A program made the translations under genes and the position numbers. The notes beneath the pieces were generated by a model. That model did no database searches. It saw nothing but the letters and a program-made list of their open reading frames with translations, and was not told the DNA's origin. A DNA stretch of 12,818 nt from a virus, in UHGV virus genome UHGV-0342252, one strand, 5' to 3'. Below are positions 811-5,945 of this stretch, piece after piece. Within the stretch, counting starts at the first letter, position 1; each line of letters begins with the position of its first letter.

Positions 811-983
811 TTCCTCGCACGATGTCTAAGCCACCGGATATCCCACAGGTGAGCCGTGTAATTGAAGGTTTTTACGTCAGATTCTTTTGGGATTGGCTTG
901 CGTTTATTTCTGGAGCGTTTCGTTGGAAGGTATTTGCAGTTTTCACAGATTATGTCGGTGATACTTCGTCGCTGTCGTCTCAT
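807..983 (-). CDS. small basic nin-region protein (58 aa), possibly NinE-like
   Basis: Internal ATG at 983..981 overlaps the ninB stop (ATGA); product [20 protein letters not shown]... is Arg/Lys-rich. Position directly after ninB matches where ninE sits in lambdoid prophages; the family assignment is a guess. Confidence 0.4.
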
Positions 984-1441
984 TCGTACCTCCTGTCGGT
1001 AAATCTGACACCCTGACCAATAGCCCATGCTGTTGTGTACTCGATCAGACTTGCCATACGCTTCACGCTCATCTGCGCGCTGCTTTCGCGAATGTTGACG
1101 TATTCGCCTTCAAGGCCGGGCAAAACATCAGCTTCCTGCTTTGTTGCCACTGCATGACCGCTTATCAACAAAACCTTCCATTGTTCTGGTTTTAACCATT
1201 TGCCGCACCATTGAACCTGACTTGCGATATCCGCCAGCATCGCGTGAAATTTTGCGTTCTGGTCAAGGTTGCGCTTGTAGTCAGTAATGCGGATGGTAAC
1301 TGGCTTGTCTTTATCGAGTGGTGTTGCGAGGATGGCGTCGTGCAGCAGGTGAATGCTCATACAACTCATCAATCGGCAAACTGGACGATGAACGATACCG
1401 ATACCAACGCACCAACTCTTCACGAAAATTAGCCCTGACAA
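980..1441 (-). CDS. ninB: NinB-like recombination protein
   Basis: Central region ([44 protein letters not shown]) resembles lambda NinB as I recall it (KPIVVTIQERNRSLDQNRKLWACLGDVSRQVEWHGRWLDAESWK). Maximal ORF begins with TTG at 1441; real start may be an internal ATG (1369 or 1360). No convincing SD at any candidate. Confidence 0.6.
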
Positions 1442-1550: not shown

Positions 1551-3431
1551 TTAATACTCCGTCACGTTTTCCTGTCGCCACGCCTCGTCATATTCCGATT
1601 TCGGCATATTGGCGATGTAGCTATAAGGCGATCCTGATTCAAGTTGCAGGAACTGGTGCGATTGCTCGTCAAGGAACAAAGGGACGCCACCTTCCCAACC
1701 TTCGCCGTTACGTTGTTTTTCAAGCATCAAAACAGATGCCGGAGATGCCAGTAGCTGTTCGTCCTTCTCTGACATCTTTTCACCACTCTGAACTCTCTGT
1801 AACGCTCTCTCGCGAGCCTTGTTACGCCAGATGATGAAAAGGTTGTCTGTCAGGTCTGTTATCGCTCCAGAGCCTTTTACGTCCATTTTCCCGGTTGGTT
1901 TTTCTTCGCTGTCTCCTTTTCGCGAGTGAGTAACGAGAATGACGTGGGAGTTTGTTTTGTTTTTGAAGTCGCAAATCGAGTCAACAAACGCCTTCTGCCC
2001 GTTATAGTCATCGTCGCCTATGCCACATTTCATCAGGCTGTCGATGATGAATAACTGGATCCCGTATCGGCGGCGAGCGTAGTCGAATATTTCGATCAGC
2101 CTGTCGGCTTTCGCCGTTCCGGTCAGACCAAACACCCAAAGTCTTTCGTCATAAAATTTAAATGCAGAGTCAATTTCCAGCACTGGCGGCATCTTGCAGC
2201 ACGTCGCCTGACGGGTAAGGCGCTTAAGGAGAATACCAGGCTTCAGCTCAAGTGACGCGATGCACGTCTTCACACCCTGACGCATTGCCTCAAGTGCCAT
2301 ATGCCCGACAACCTCCGTTTTTCCGTGACCGTTCACACCATTGACCAGCGTCAACTCTGCCTCACGGAACTGGAATTTATCTGCCAGAGATTCCCACGGT
2401 GGATTAAACAGATACTGCTGCTTGCCGTAGAAAGCGTTGATAGTGTCCTGGTAAAACTCTCGCGCGCTGTAGAGTTCTTCAGGATCGAAGTAGGATGCCG
2501 TGCCGATGTACTGCCAGATTTCATCCTCGGTAACACCGTTCATCAGGCATTCGTTGATGTCTTTGTACGGCAGAGTAACAAGACGGCAACGATGTTCACC
2601 GAGTCGGCTTGCGATTTCCCTTGCGGCTTCACGACCAACATCATCAACGTCCATCGAGATGAATATTTCCTCAAACCTGTCGAGGTTGTGATACTCAAAC
2701 TCAATCCACTGTTGCTTAGCGCCTTTCCCGCCACCAAACGGCACGGATAACGCCGAGATGCCGTATTGCGCATAGCTCATACAATCAATTTCGCCTTCGC
2801 AAAGTACAACCGCCCTCACGCCAGCGTCCAGAGCCTGCCATCCGAACAGACAAGGTTCGCAATCACCTTCTGCCATAATGACTTTCTTCCCGTCCGGGCG
2901 CTCAGTGCTGATTCGCTTGACCTGCAACAACTCACCATCGCGTTTGTACGGAATCACCAGAGCATCCAGTTCTCGCTCTCCATTCCACACCTTGCCGCTG
3001 ACAACCTCGTAGCGCTTTACGACTTCTGGCGATATGCCACGCGATTGCAGGTACTCAAGATGGGATTCTGTTCTGGTAACGTAGCGGGCGATTTTCTTGC
3101 GATCAGGTCTGGAGAATTTCTTCTCACGTTTGGCATCGAAATGGTGATCGTCATCCTTGATACCGAGAAATGCTTTCGCTTCCTGCATAGCCTGATGCAG
3201 GTTAATTCCTCGACATGCCATCCACAAATCAAGCATGTCACCGCCGTCCCCCTCAGCGAAATCAGCCCATTTTTTCTTGCCGCTAAGGTTGACCTTAAGG
3301 CTGTTTCCCTTGTCACCGTTGACGTTACCGGCAACCCACTCATGCCCCTCTTTCTTGCCGTTTGGCAACAGGTGCGGAGCCACCCTGTCAACCTGCGCCC
3401 AAAGCAGGTCGCTAAGTTCACTTGGCGTCAT
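1551..3431 (-). CDS. primase-helicase fusion (Toprim primase + DnaB/T7 gp4-type SF4 helicase), 626 aa
   Basis: Toprim motifs (VVLCEGEIDCMS; ISMDVDDVGREAA), Walker A (NGVNGHGKTEVV), Walker B-like (QLFIIDSLMK). N-terminal region resembles a primase zinc-binding domain but has no cysteines. ATG overlaps the stop of a small upstream ORF (ATGA). Confidence 0.85.
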   Translation of the reverse strand: MTPSELSDLLWAQVDRVAPHLLPNGKKEGHEWVAGNVNGDKGNSLKVNLSGKKKWADFAEGDGGDMLDLWMACRGINLHQAMQEAKAFLGIKDDDHHFDAKREKKFSRPDRKKIARYVTRTESHLEYLQSRGISPEVVKRYEVVSGKVWNGERELDALVIPYKRDGELLQVKRISTERPDGKKVIMAEGDCEPCLFGWQALDAGVRAVVLCEGEIDCMSYAQYGISALSVPFGGGKGAKQQWIEFEYHNLDRFEEIFISMDVDDVGREAAREIASRLGEHRCRLVTLPYKDINECLMNGVTEDEIWQYIGTASYFDPEELYSAREFYQDTINAFYGKQQYLFNPPWESLADKFQFREAELTLVNGVNGHGKTEVVGHMALEAMRQGVKTCIASLELKPGILLKRLTRQATCCKMPPVLEIDSAFKFYDERLWVFGLTGTAKADRLIEIFDYARRRYGIQLFIIDSLMKCGIGDDDYNGQKAFVDSICDFKNKTNSHVILVTHSRKGDSEEKPTGKMDVKGSGAITDLTDNLFIIWRNKARERALQRVQSGEKMSEKDEQLLASPASVLMLEKQRNGEGWEGGVPLFLDEQSHQFLQLESGSPYSYIANMPKSEYDEAWRQENVTEY

Positions 3432-3535
3432 GATTCCCTCAGATTGAGATTTTTAAACCAGAAATCGACAAACGAAATACTTAACCAGCCGTGGTTATAA
3501 CCAGCGACCAGTAGCGATTTGATTTTTGATTTCAT
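3428..3535 (-). CDS. possible small hydrophobic peptide (35 aa) bridging O-like and helicase genes
   Basis: ATG at 3535..3533 begins 3 nt after the O-like stop; stop TGA overlaps the helicase ATG (ATGA). Product MKSKIKSLLVAGYNHGWLSISFVDFWFKNLNLRES. No independent SD; could be non-coding spacer. Confidence 0.3.
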   Translation of the reverse strand: MKSKIKSLLVAGYNHGWLSISFVDFWFKNLNLRES

Positions 3536-3538
3536 GGT

Positions 3539-4399
3539 TCACCTGTCGAAAAACACGTAGCCAGTTTTCGATACGGTGATTGCGGATGATGGTTTGGATT
3601 GTGGTTGAATGGTTTCTGGCTTTTCGTCGTTCCAGCGCTGACCGTTCAGGTAGCTCGATGGTAACAACCTGTCGAATCCGAACTGCTTACCATTCCTGCA
3701 TGCGATGTCTTCTGCCAGCATCGTGGCAAACTCGCTTGCCGTACCCCTGGTAGTTTTACGCCATTCCCTGAACTGTGTTCTGAATGCCGAAGCTGCGTTT
3801 TTCTTCCCGGCTTTCCGCATGCCTGCACACCAGAATATTTCCTCGAATGCCTTGTCGGTTTCTTCGTGACGGTCATGTGATTTTTCACACTCCGTCCGAA
3901 CACTTTCGGACATAGTGTTTTTATTATTTCTTTTTTCTTTTGTAATAGTTTCTTTTGTGTGTCCCTGTTTTGGTGACAGCGCTGTCACCGTTTTGGTGAC
4001 ACTTTTTGTCACCAATGCAGTGACATTATCACCAGAGTAGTGACACCCTTCTATTTGCCATTCCTCGATGTTCTTGTTAGGCCCGATTTGCTGGCCTTCG
4101 CGAAGGATAACCTTCATCGCGATAAGCTCATTCTTGGCCTTGTTTACCTTCTGTCTTGGCAGCCTGGTAATTTGAGCTAACTGACTATCAGAGATGCGAT
4201 CCATCTTTTTACCGTAGCCGTATGTTTTACGGCATATGGCGTGGGCAACCTTGCTCTGATTTTTCGTTAAATCTGCGCCGATAAGCTCTTCATACAGGGC
4301 ATTTGCAAGACGGGTATAACCATCTTCAACTTCTGCCACACGACGCTCCACAGGCCGTTGTGAAGGCCTTAAATGTGTTACGGTTGCAAGATTACTCAT
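3539..4399 (-). CDS. replication initiator, lambda O-like N-terminal domain with a distinct C-terminal domain (286 aa)
   Basis: N-terminus ([55 protein letters not shown]...GPNKNIEEW) closely parallels lambda O as I recall it; iteron repeats and an A+T-rich tract lie mid-gene; strong SD (AGGAG) before the ATG. The C-terminal half does not resemble lambda O. Confidence 0.85.
3915..4047. other. ori-like element inside the O-like gene: GTGACA-type iterons (3972..4047) next to an A+T-rich tract (3915..3960)
   Basis: About seven copies of GGTGACA/TGTCACC in alternating orientation, including perfect palindromes GGTGACAGC/GCTGTCACC, followed in gene direction by a T/A-rich stretch; same layout as lambda ori within O. 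Iterons encode the VT-rich linker ([17 protein letters not shown]). Confidence 0.7.
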
Positions 4400-4538
4400 G
4401 ACCTTTCTCCTTCTGCATCAGCTTCACTTTTTCCAACTCAGCCCGGAATCGACCAGGCTGCTTGAAGCTGGACAGGAAGCGATCACGTAGTATGTGTTTG
4501 TGAATTTTGTCCTGGTAAGGACTGAGTTGTTTTGTCAT
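4392..4538 (-). CDS. small basic ORF (48 aa) between cII and the O-like gene
   Basis: Strong SD (AGGAG) 6 nt before ATG 4538..4536; stop overlaps the O-like ATG by 8 nt (ATGAGTAA). Product [48 protein letters not shown]. The SD+ATG appear to be those used by O in lambda. Confidence 0.4.
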
Positions 4539-4548
4539 AATGACTCCT

Positions 4549-4626
4549 GTGGATTGATCCAGTAATGACCTCAGAATTCCATCTGGATTTGTTCAGAACG
4601 CTCGGTTGCCGCCGGGCGTTTTTTAT
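4549..4626 (+). ncRNA. oop: OOP-like antisense RNA overlapping the 3' end of cII
   Basis: Plus-strand sequence ...GAACGCTCGGTTGCCGCCGGGCGTTTTTTATT matches the lambda oop terminator region as I recall it (GC-rich hairpin plus T-run ending about 4624); a CATAAT -10 candidate lies at 4536..4541. The -35 is not convincing, so the 5' end is approximate. Confidence 0.45.
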
Positions 4627-4864
4627 TGGTGAGAATCGAAGCAACTTGTCGTGCCAATCGAGCCATATCGTCGTCAACGACGCCCCATTCAAGAACAGCA
4701 AGCAGCATTGAGAACTTTGGAATCCAGTCCCTCTTCCACCTGCTGATCTGCGACTTATCAACTCCCACAGCTTCCGCTGTCTTCTCAGTTCCAAGCATTG
4801 CGATTTTGTTAAGCAACGCACTCTCGATTCGTAGAGCCTCGTTGCGTTTGTTTGCACGAACCAT
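4571..4864 (-). CDS. cII: transcriptional activator CII (97 aa)
   Basis: Translation from ATG 4864..4862 ([97 protein letters not shown]) matches lambda CII from memory nearly residue for residue. The ORF-track ORF 4571..4924 extends upstream without support. Confidence 0.95.
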
Positions 4865-4880
4865 ATGTAAGTATTTCCTT
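4842..4880 (+). promoter_or_regulatory. pRE-like promoter with CII box TTGC-N6-TTGC
   Basis: TTGCGTTTGTTTGC at 4842..4855 on the plus strand (the CII recognition repeat), followed by AAGTAT -10 candidate about 4870..4875; reads through cro in antisense toward cI, as in lambda. Confidence 0.7.
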
Positions 4881-4943
4881 AGATAACAATTGATTGAATG
4901 TATGCAAATAAATGCATACACCATAGGTGTGGTTTAATTTGAT

Positions 4944-4983: not shown

Positions 4984-5199
4984 TTAAGCGGCTTTGTGTT
5001 CCGGCGGGAACAAGCCATCTAGCGTTGTCTTGCTCCCCAATTTATTCAGCGCCTTTACCAGGCGACGGCACGACTCTAAATCTGGAGTCCGGATACCTGA
5101 CTCGTAGTTAGCTAAGCGGGACTGGTTCCAGCCACACGCGCCTGCTAACGCAGATTGAGTGATGCCAAGCTTTTTCCGTTCGTTGGCAATGTTGTTCAT
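4984..5199 (-). CDS. cro: Cro-like HTH repressor (71 aa), not lambda Cro type
   Basis: First gene downstream of pR, divergent from cI; SD AAGGA before the ATG. HTH (LAGACGWNQSRLANYESGIRTP) is very similar to the cI HTH (LAELCGWASQSRIGNYESGTRSV), as expected for proteins sharing operators. Confidence 0.75.
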   Translation of the reverse strand: MNNIANERKKLGITQSALAGACGWNQSRLANYESGIRTPDLESCRRLVKALNKLGSKTTLDGLFPPEHKAA

Positions 5200-5303: not shown

Positions 5304-5945
5304 ATGCGCATGAACAGAACAGAAACTATCGCCGCGCGTATCAAGCGATTACGGGAAGATAAAGGGCTTTCACAGAAGGCTCTGGCGGAGCTTTGCGGCT
5401 GGGCTTCACAATCTCGGATCGGCAACTATGAATCAGGAACCAGAAGCGTTAGTGTTGATGACGCAGAGGTAATAGCTAAAGCTTTGGGCGTCGCTCCGGC
5501 AGAACTGCTTTTTGGCGACAACTATCAGGGACAATACAAGCCAGGGGAAAAGTTTCCGTTGATTAGCTGGGTTAGCGCAGGTGCATGGAGTGAGGCCGTA
5601 GAGCCGTACAACCCTCAGGCAGTGGATGAGTGGTATGAATCAGATTGTCACGTTGTCGGTGACGCCTTCTGGCTCAGGGTTCAGGGCGACTCAATGACAG
5701 CTCCTACCGGCCTTAGCGTTCCTGAGGGTATGCTGGTTCTGTTCGACACTGGAAAGGAAGCCGTTAATGGAAGCCTGGTAGTTGCGAAGCTGACAGATGC
5801 TAATGAAGCCACGTTCAAGAAGCTAATCATTGATGGCGGTAACAAATACCTGAAAGGGCTTAACCCTGCCTATCCGTTGATCCCAATCGACGGCAACTGC
5901 AAGATAATCGGCGTAGCAGTGCAGATGATGATGAAATTCTCCTGA
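5304..5945 (+). CDS. cI: CI-type prophage repressor with LexA-like S24 autopeptidase domain (213 aa)
   Basis: N-terminal HTH; C-terminal domain with Ala-Gly cleavage site (SWVSAGAW), Ser (QGDSMTAP) and Lys (VVAKL) resembles the P22 C2 / lambda CI family. Alternative start at ATG 5310. Confidence 0.9.
   Translation: MRMNRTETIAARIKRLREDKGLSQKALAELCGWASQSRIGNYESGTRSVSVDDAEVIAKALGVAPAELLFGDNYQGQYKPGEKFPLISWVSAGAWSEAVEPYNPQAVDEWYESDCHVVGDAFWLRVQGDSMTAPTGLSVPEGMLVLFDTGKEAVNGSLVVAKLTDANEATFKKLIIDGGNKYLKGLNPAYPLIPIDGNCKIIGVAVQMMMKFS

Follow-up and report, generated by a model that had tools for sequence, protein, structure and literature searches.

The segment 3915-4047 of the window, by which we mean the whole 12,818-nucleotide stretch of viral DNA analysed here, is very probably the replication origin of a lambdoid prophage, with the build of the lambda ori and located in the linker-coding part of a gene for an O-like initiator. 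As a lambda-type origin, it would stand apart by its iteron specificity, which has had no explicit description before.

The window covers the part of a lambdoid prophage devoted to immunity and replication. The order of the early-right operon is that of lambdoid phages: cI (5304-5945, plus strand), cro (4984-5199, minus strand), cII (4571-4924, minus strand), DUF2740, the O-like gene (3539-4399, minus strand), a primase-helicase gene (1551-3431, minus strand) and NinB (980-1441, minus strand). The primase-helicase, a T7 gp4-like protein of 626 residues with Toprim_2 and DnaB_C/AAA_25 domains, is the presumed partner recruited to the origin. The initiator, encoded by a 286-residue ORF, gives a sole Pfam hit, PF04492 (Phage_rep_O), over residues 20-114 with E = 1e-37. 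The O-like character assigned to it in the earlier note is thus confirmed, and in its sequence the segment lacks none of the hallmarks of a lambdoid origin. The N-terminal part of the initiator (residues 1-114; 4058-4399, minus strand) is a predicted origin-binding domain with a predicted winged-helix fold. The C-terminal domain (3539-3914, minus strand) is of the ES18 gp59 type, which is always accompanied by the primase-helicase gene. A sequence search of the PDB with the initiator found no solved relative. The iteron block and the A+T tract lie wholly within the initiator gene, directly past its Phage_rep_O domain. The iterons encode residues ~119-147, that is, the region between the N-terminal and C-terminal domains.

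Architecture of the probable origin

The hexamer GTGACA is found ten times in the window, both strands included. Six of these copies fall within the 73 nucleotides from 3973 to 4045, where ~0.034 is expected (P(>=6) = 2e-12, or 4e-10 corrected for windows). The earlier note described them as hexamers of alternating orientation. Repeats of GTGACA units are real and far above chance, but the alternating hexamers are 19-bp dyads viewed at half-site resolution. Four 19-bp iterons are present, each a hyphenated dyad TGTCACC-N5-GGTGACA with 0-2 mismatches. When at most two mismatches are allowed, this pattern has five matches in the window against 0.01 expected, four of them contiguous at the origin. 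All four iterons are read on the minus strand. Iteron 1, promoter-proximal, spans 4027-4045 (TGTCACTACTCTGGTGATA; two mismatches to the dyad consensus; peptide CHYSGD). Iteron 2 spans 4007-4025 (TGTCACTGCATTGGTGACA; one mismatch; peptide VTALVT). Iteron 3, at 3983-4001, is a perfect dyad (TGTCACCAAAACGGTGACA; peptide VTKTVT), and iteron 4, at 3960-3978, has the right arm AGGGACA (TGTCACCAAAACAGGGACA; peptide SPKQGH). Start-to-start spacings on the coding strand are 20, 24 and 23 nt. A repeat search independently gave direct repeats of 19-20 nt with spacings of 23, 24 and 20 nt, the same units being mutual inverted repeats.

The register GGTGACA-N-TGTCACC was rejected: its spacers vary (1, 5 and 4 bp) and orphan half-sites are left at both ends. 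The N5 register is preferred because the 5-bp spacer is constant in every copy and in every related locus. The perfect palindrome pointed out earlier does exist at 3972-3989 (GGTGACAGC/GCTGTCACC), but it consists of the facing arms of two neighbouring iterons and is no single binding unit.

The right arm of iteron 4, AGGGACA and not GGTGACA, is unchanged in 18 of 20 loci and becomes AGAGTCA in the two others (L009 and L010). It resembles the right arm of lambda iteron 4, AGGGGGA, and both encode the conserved linker peptide KQG. The variant suggests either that coding and binding needs were balanced against each other or that iteron 4 was once the place of a crossover. Iteron copy number in the TGTCACC class ranges from 3 to at least 8 (L042, an Arsenophonus endosymbiont; L024/L029/L037/L026; L019/L032), and in these variants the 24/23 phasing is preserved among the last three units. 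This variation recalls the origins of Stx phages, which have six iterons.

A solitary dyad, TGTCACGTTGTCGGTGACG, is located in cI (5646-5664, plus strand). It has two mismatches, the whole-window expectation being 0.01 at this threshold. As a candidate for an extra initiator site it was set aside as probably due to chance. Solitary iteron-like sites outside the origin are rare (3 in 192 kb of same-class loci versus 1 in 224 kb of other-class loci, the displaced origin of L030 being excluded) and their positions are not conserved in related loci. DnaA boxes gave no signal in the window, with two relaxed matches versus 1.5 expected.

The A+T-rich tract, the presumed DNA-unwinding element, occupies 3915-3958 (44 bp, minus strand; coding strand CACAAAAGAAACTATTACAAAAGAAAAAAGAAATAATAAAAAC). 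Its GC content is 18%, for a window mean of 47.6%, and it is strongly strand-asymmetric with 70% T on the plus strand. The lowest-GC 44-mer of the whole window lies here, which bears out the A+T-rich tract that the earlier note had placed next to the repeats. In the conserved CACAAAAGA...ACTATTACAAAAGA tract, CACAAAAGA comes 18 nt after the start of the last iteron. The iteron-proximal part of the A+T tract (CACAAAAGAnACTATTnCAAAAGA) is common to all iteron classes, lambda included.

Just beyond the tract, an inverted repeat is observed at 3887-3918 (minus strand, ACACT-ATGTCCGAA-AGTG-TTCGGACG-GAGTGT). Its core, GTCCGAA-AGTG-TTCGGAC, is extended by ACACT/AGTGT and folds as single-stranded DNA with an energy of -11.9 kcal/mol (z = -6.9). 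The repeat travels with the ES18-type C-terminal/primase-helicase module. Covariation provides one clear double compensatory case, L021 (GAGCGAA...TTCGCTC), and the hairpins of L009 and L055 are weak. The repeat may correspond to the one located to the right of the lambda A+T tract, likewise inverted, and it may be part of the origin.

Each lambda iteron is an imperfect inverted repeat of 18-19 bp to which a dimer of O binds (PMC7466680, PMC6022878). In lambda, unwinding occurs in the A+T region, and O contacts DNA through its N-terminus and P through its C-terminus (PMC7466680, PMC6022878, PMC3349717). The window origin is collinear with that of lambda. The lambda ori is also embedded in the initiator gene, where it separates the part for the DNA-binding domain from that for the partner-binding domain, and also contains four 18-19-bp hyphenated dyads with an A-rich 5-bp centre and a 20/24/23 spacing. 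Its inner iterons are the best matches to the consensus, as in the window, and its last iteron is likewise 18 nt before an A+T tract with a nearly identical opening (CACAAAAGAnACTATTACAAAAGAAAAAAGAAA). The architectural contrast drawn in the earlier note, between direct repeats in lambda and partly palindromic short units here, therefore falls, since the lambda iterons are themselves inverted repeats. Only the 7-bp arms differ, ATCCCTC/GAGGGAT in lambda versus TGTCACC/GGTGACA in the window. As for the initiators, the N-terminal domain of lambda O is only 53% identical to that of the window, with a different predicted recognition helix. Its C-terminal domain is unrelated, and its partner is P versus the primase-helicase in the window.

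The arrangement of four 19-bp dyads spaced 20/24/23, with the last start 18 nt before CACAAAAGA, is the commonest geometry. It is found in 22 TGTCAC-class loci and is identical in 12 lambda-class loci, including lambda itself, and in 11 HK97-type loci. P22 gene 18 and HK97 gene O belong to the same family and have the same architecture, four dyad iterons followed by CACAAAAGACAATATACAAAAGA (PMC8022706). Their arms are TTTACC/GGTAAA (P22) and ATTAGCC/GGCTAAT (HK97), and both have helicase partners of the DnaB type. Iteron plasmids of the RepA/pi/RepE type likewise have clustered initiator-binding repeats adjoining an A+T-rich unwinding element. In these plasmids, however, Rep binds as a monomer to direct repeats that are asymmetric and located outside the rep gene. 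The window origin is not of this type: its units are dyads, they lie inside the ORF, and the initiator is a Phage_rep_O protein, not a Rep_3 protein. The dyad units would imply binding of a dimer, unlike plasmid iterons. Of the features of a lambda-type origin, a location inside a Phage_rep_O gene, at least three dyad iterons of 18-19 bp and lambda-like phasing are found here. The replicon is nevertheless no strict lambda O-P-DnaB replicon, as the downstream gene encodes the 626-residue primase-helicase and not a P-type loader. The C-terminal domain, of ES18 type, gives no alignment to the O protein of lambda or of PhiR12.

By analogy with lambda (PMC6022878, PMC3349717, PMC7466680), we infer how this origin would fire. 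Dimers of the N-terminal, predicted winged-helix domain of the initiator would occupy the four 19-bp dyads and form with them a nucleoprotein complex, the equivalent of the 'O-some'. This complex would stress or distort the DNA and melt the adjoining 44-bp A+T tract. The C-terminal domain of the initiator would then recruit the T7 gp4-like primase-helicase of the phage, replacing lambda P and host DnaB. Direct recruitment by this domain is suggested by the co-occurrence of the two modules.

Constraint on the arms and alternative readings

Conservation was analysed in 20 non-identical four-iteron loci of the TGTCACC class, having N-terminal domains with 67-100% amino acid identity to that of the window. 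Arm columns are 93% conserved, with 40 of 56 invariant, while conservation is 80% in the 5-bp centres and 78% in the inter-iteron bases. The four iterons start in codon phases 1, 3, 3 and 2; they thus use three phases and encode unrelated peptides. At third codon positions, conservation is 0.90 in arm columns versus 0.60 in the adjacent N-terminal domain (MWU p = 1.6e-7). The constraint on the arms acts at the DNA level and not at the peptide level.

These data bear on the idea that a repeated peptide motif in the linker of the initiator, VT-K-x-VT, gave rise to the repeats as a side effect, without function as DNA. The region is coding throughout, and iterons 2 and 3 are in the same frame and both encode V-T...V-T. 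However, iterons 1 and 4 carry the nucleotide motif in the other two frames, giving CHYSGD and SPKQGH, and in the other classes the eight half-sites have all changed together with the geometry kept. The reading-frame and third-position analyses effectively refute such a peptide-repeat artefact, which we consider extremely improbable. Roles of the dyads as RNA hairpins in the early-right transcript, acting in attenuation, stability or control of initiator translation, or as DNA cruciforms, have also to be weighed. Each unit is an inverted repeat, both arms change together between classes so that pairing is preserved, and possible roles of this kind have been discussed for lambdoid iterons (PMC7466680). 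A hairpin, however, would require neither one arm sequence in all four units nor its tracking of the recognition helix. Within a class, the arm sequence itself is conserved, beyond mere pairing. Moreover, the outer iterons break pairing and keep the consensus (TGTCACT/GGTGATA in iteron 1; TGTCACC/AGGGACA in iteron 4, the variant of 18 loci out of 20). No Rfam hit was obtained in the window at gathering thresholds, and the lambda precedent is one of protein binding. Hairpins or cruciforms are therefore very unlikely to account for the dyads.

Dyad-symmetric 19-mers are also typical of operators, and the sites could be targets of another regulator, of Cro/cI/cII type or a host factor, instead of the initiator. 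The further near-match in cI would fit with this. Against it, the identical iteron block is found in mEp043 with a different immunity region (933W-like repressor of ~228 residues versus 213 residues here). The block also occurs in many genera, always at the same position inside an O-like gene, and the few solitary matches elsewhere than at the origin are at non-conserved positions, as described above. We find the operator explanation hardly credible, and retain the dyads as iterons of a lambda-type origin.

Arm classes and the implied specificity of the initiator

Different origin specificities among lambdoid phages, with the iterons inside the gene, are long established (PMC2629481, PMC8022706). 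To situate the window origin, we surveyed 80 loci with related N-terminal domains, including lambda (contaminant contigs), which correspond to ~70 distinct loci; the class analysis was made with 68 distinct N-terminal domains. At least seven arm classes are observed: TGTCACC, TGTTACC/TGTTCCC, TGTCTCT, ATCCCTC (lambda), ATTAGCC (HK97), TTCCCCG and TTTACAG. The TTTACC arms of P22 were read separately from this set. Across related loci, the arms differ by class together with the N-terminal domain and the geometry stays constant. Mean identity of the N-terminal domains is 64-88% within classes, the lowest value being that of the small TTTACA group, which includes the misassigned L030, and 47-71% between classes. 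For 66 of the 68 domains, the nearest N-terminal neighbour has the same arm class.

Residues that are fixed within classes and differ between them cluster at positions 79-90, with a second cluster at positions 28-33. An AlphaFold2 model of the initiator has a mean pLDDT of 66, rising to 80-90 over residues 70-110. The underlying alignment came from a homologue search with 52 hits, mostly short fragments, and is unsuited to counting family size. The model contains helices 46-60, 71-78 and 82-94 followed by a beta hairpin. This arrangement, a helix-turn-helix plus a wing, makes the N-terminal domain a predicted winged helix in which 82-94 would be the recognition helix. Foldseek retrieved only generic dimeric winged-helix regulators of MarR and CRP types, with weak scores (E ~0.01, TM ~0.45). 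In the window initiator, the putative recognition helix carries the class-specific residues RQKVNKAK. At the corresponding place lambda has LPVKRCNEAKLEL and the HK97 type has IHHTHVCKAKNEM, both unlike the window. The TGTTACC class, a single-base neighbour of TGTCACC, has the helix SRPKANI.

The overall pattern is what a dimeric initiator reading two half-sites 12 bp apart would produce. The different DNA-recognition specificity proposed in the earlier note is implied by an iteron sequence unlike that of lambda, and agrees with the covariation of arms and N-terminal domain over ~70 loci. The arm sequence and the predicted recognition helix would together define a specificity class distinct from those of lambda, P22 and HK97. 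Part of the covariation could reflect linkage rather than co-adaptation, because the iterons adjoin the region encoding the N-terminal domain.

Modular exchange and distribution

The window is a mosaic, with a junction inside the A+T tract at 3926/3927. Upstream, at 3927-4399, identity to the O gene of PhiR12_1 is 100% apart from a single mismatch (4052). Downstream (3539 to ~3924), the sequence is of ES18 type, with 87-100% identity to ES18 from ~3924 downward. PhiR12_1-5 have the same N-terminal domain and iterons, joined to a lambda-type C-terminal domain, P and ren. The ES18 gp59/gp61 module, also found in epsilon34, g341c and vB_SosS_Oslo, shows 91-94% nucleotide identity over window positions 3400-3972. 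ES18 shares with the window the C-terminal domain, a small ORF, the T7 gp4-like primase-helicase and the inverted repeat past the A+T tract. It differs by its lambda-type iterons and lambda-type N-terminal domain (PMC2629481). The ES18 record carries a rep_origin, 'similar to lambda ori', at the homologous position.

Across loci, the type of the C-terminal domain strictly follows the downstream gene. All the loci with the primase-helicase (10 of 10) have the ES18 type, and the loci with lambda P, with a DnaB-like helicase or with an IstB/DnaC-like loader have other types. The TGTCACC class is found with all four partners: DnaB-like, lambda-P, IstB/DnaC-like and primase-helicase. The iterons stay with the N-terminal domain and reassort with it as a single module relative to the C-terminal/helicase module. 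The shared A+T tract probably serves as the crossover site for the exchange.

The whole module is 98.6-99.5% identical at the nucleotide level (origin ~99.5%) in Sf101, mEp043, SEN22 and vB_EcoP-720R6, which are deposited as complete genomes. A comparison over the whole module in these four phages, and over the N-terminal domain and iterons only in PhiR12_1-5, gave 99.3-99.8% nucleotide identity with all four iterons included; for practical purposes they share one origin. The block formed by the N-terminal domain and the iterons is present in 171-175 of 5,426 complete E. coli genomes (~3%). Diverged forms are found in Citrobacter, Pantoea, Serratia, Xenorhabdus, Photorhabdus, Providencia, Arsenophonus and Proteus phage vB_BPM-V3. 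An origin feature is absent from the three phage records inspected (PhiR12_1, mEp043 and Proteus phage vB_BPM-V3), and the origin is not discussed in the Sf101 paper. Our literature search found no paper pairing the TGTCACC/GGTGACA sequence with iterons and no experiment on this iteron class.

Two surveyed loci have interrupted genes. In a plasmid of Klebsiella sp. WOUb02 (L030, ~3290-4600), the O-like gene is split by a ~1.3-kb insertion that separates the N-terminal domain from a six-iteron array. In Symbiopectobacterium purcellii (L039), it is broken inside the last iteron. Both origins are probably dead. Thirteen other loci (L056-L068), for example in Shewanella, Pseudomonas, Neobacillus, Oceanobacillus, Ruminococcus, Bradyrhizobium and Chromatium assemblies, which are unrelated to one another, carry the lambda O/ori on contigs, several of them of ~48 kb and some with ~1x coverage. 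The lambda O/ori is identical in 12 of the 13, and the remaining one (L067) is without one base in iteron 2 and is cut by the contig end. These contigs look like contamination by lambda control DNA. The record MW057783.1 ('Campylobacter phage CJLB-4', 48,361 bp) is close to lambda in length, and its O gene matches the query with the same identity (53.0%) and E-value as the lambda records do. Contamination by lambda or a wrong label may be the explanation.

How lambda-type origins are currently understood to work is left unchanged by these results. For annotation, the origin of prophages of the Sf101, mEp043 and SEN22 types can now be placed precisely at the iterons and the A+T tract. More tentatively, and with rather less than even confidence, we propose that TGTCACC/GGTGACA iterons and the RQKVNK-type helix may form an uncharacterised, orthogonal specificity group. 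With its own primase-helicase, such a replicon might replicate independently of host DnaB, DnaC and DnaG. If so, the TGTCACC class would form, with the TGTTACC, lambda, HK97 and P22 classes, a natural series for a winged-helix recognition code. The set of at least seven arm classes, with a constant geometry and four kinds of partner, illustrates the modular evolution of lambdoid phages. It could help to choose orthogonal origin/initiator pairs and to predict replication interference between co-resident prophages.
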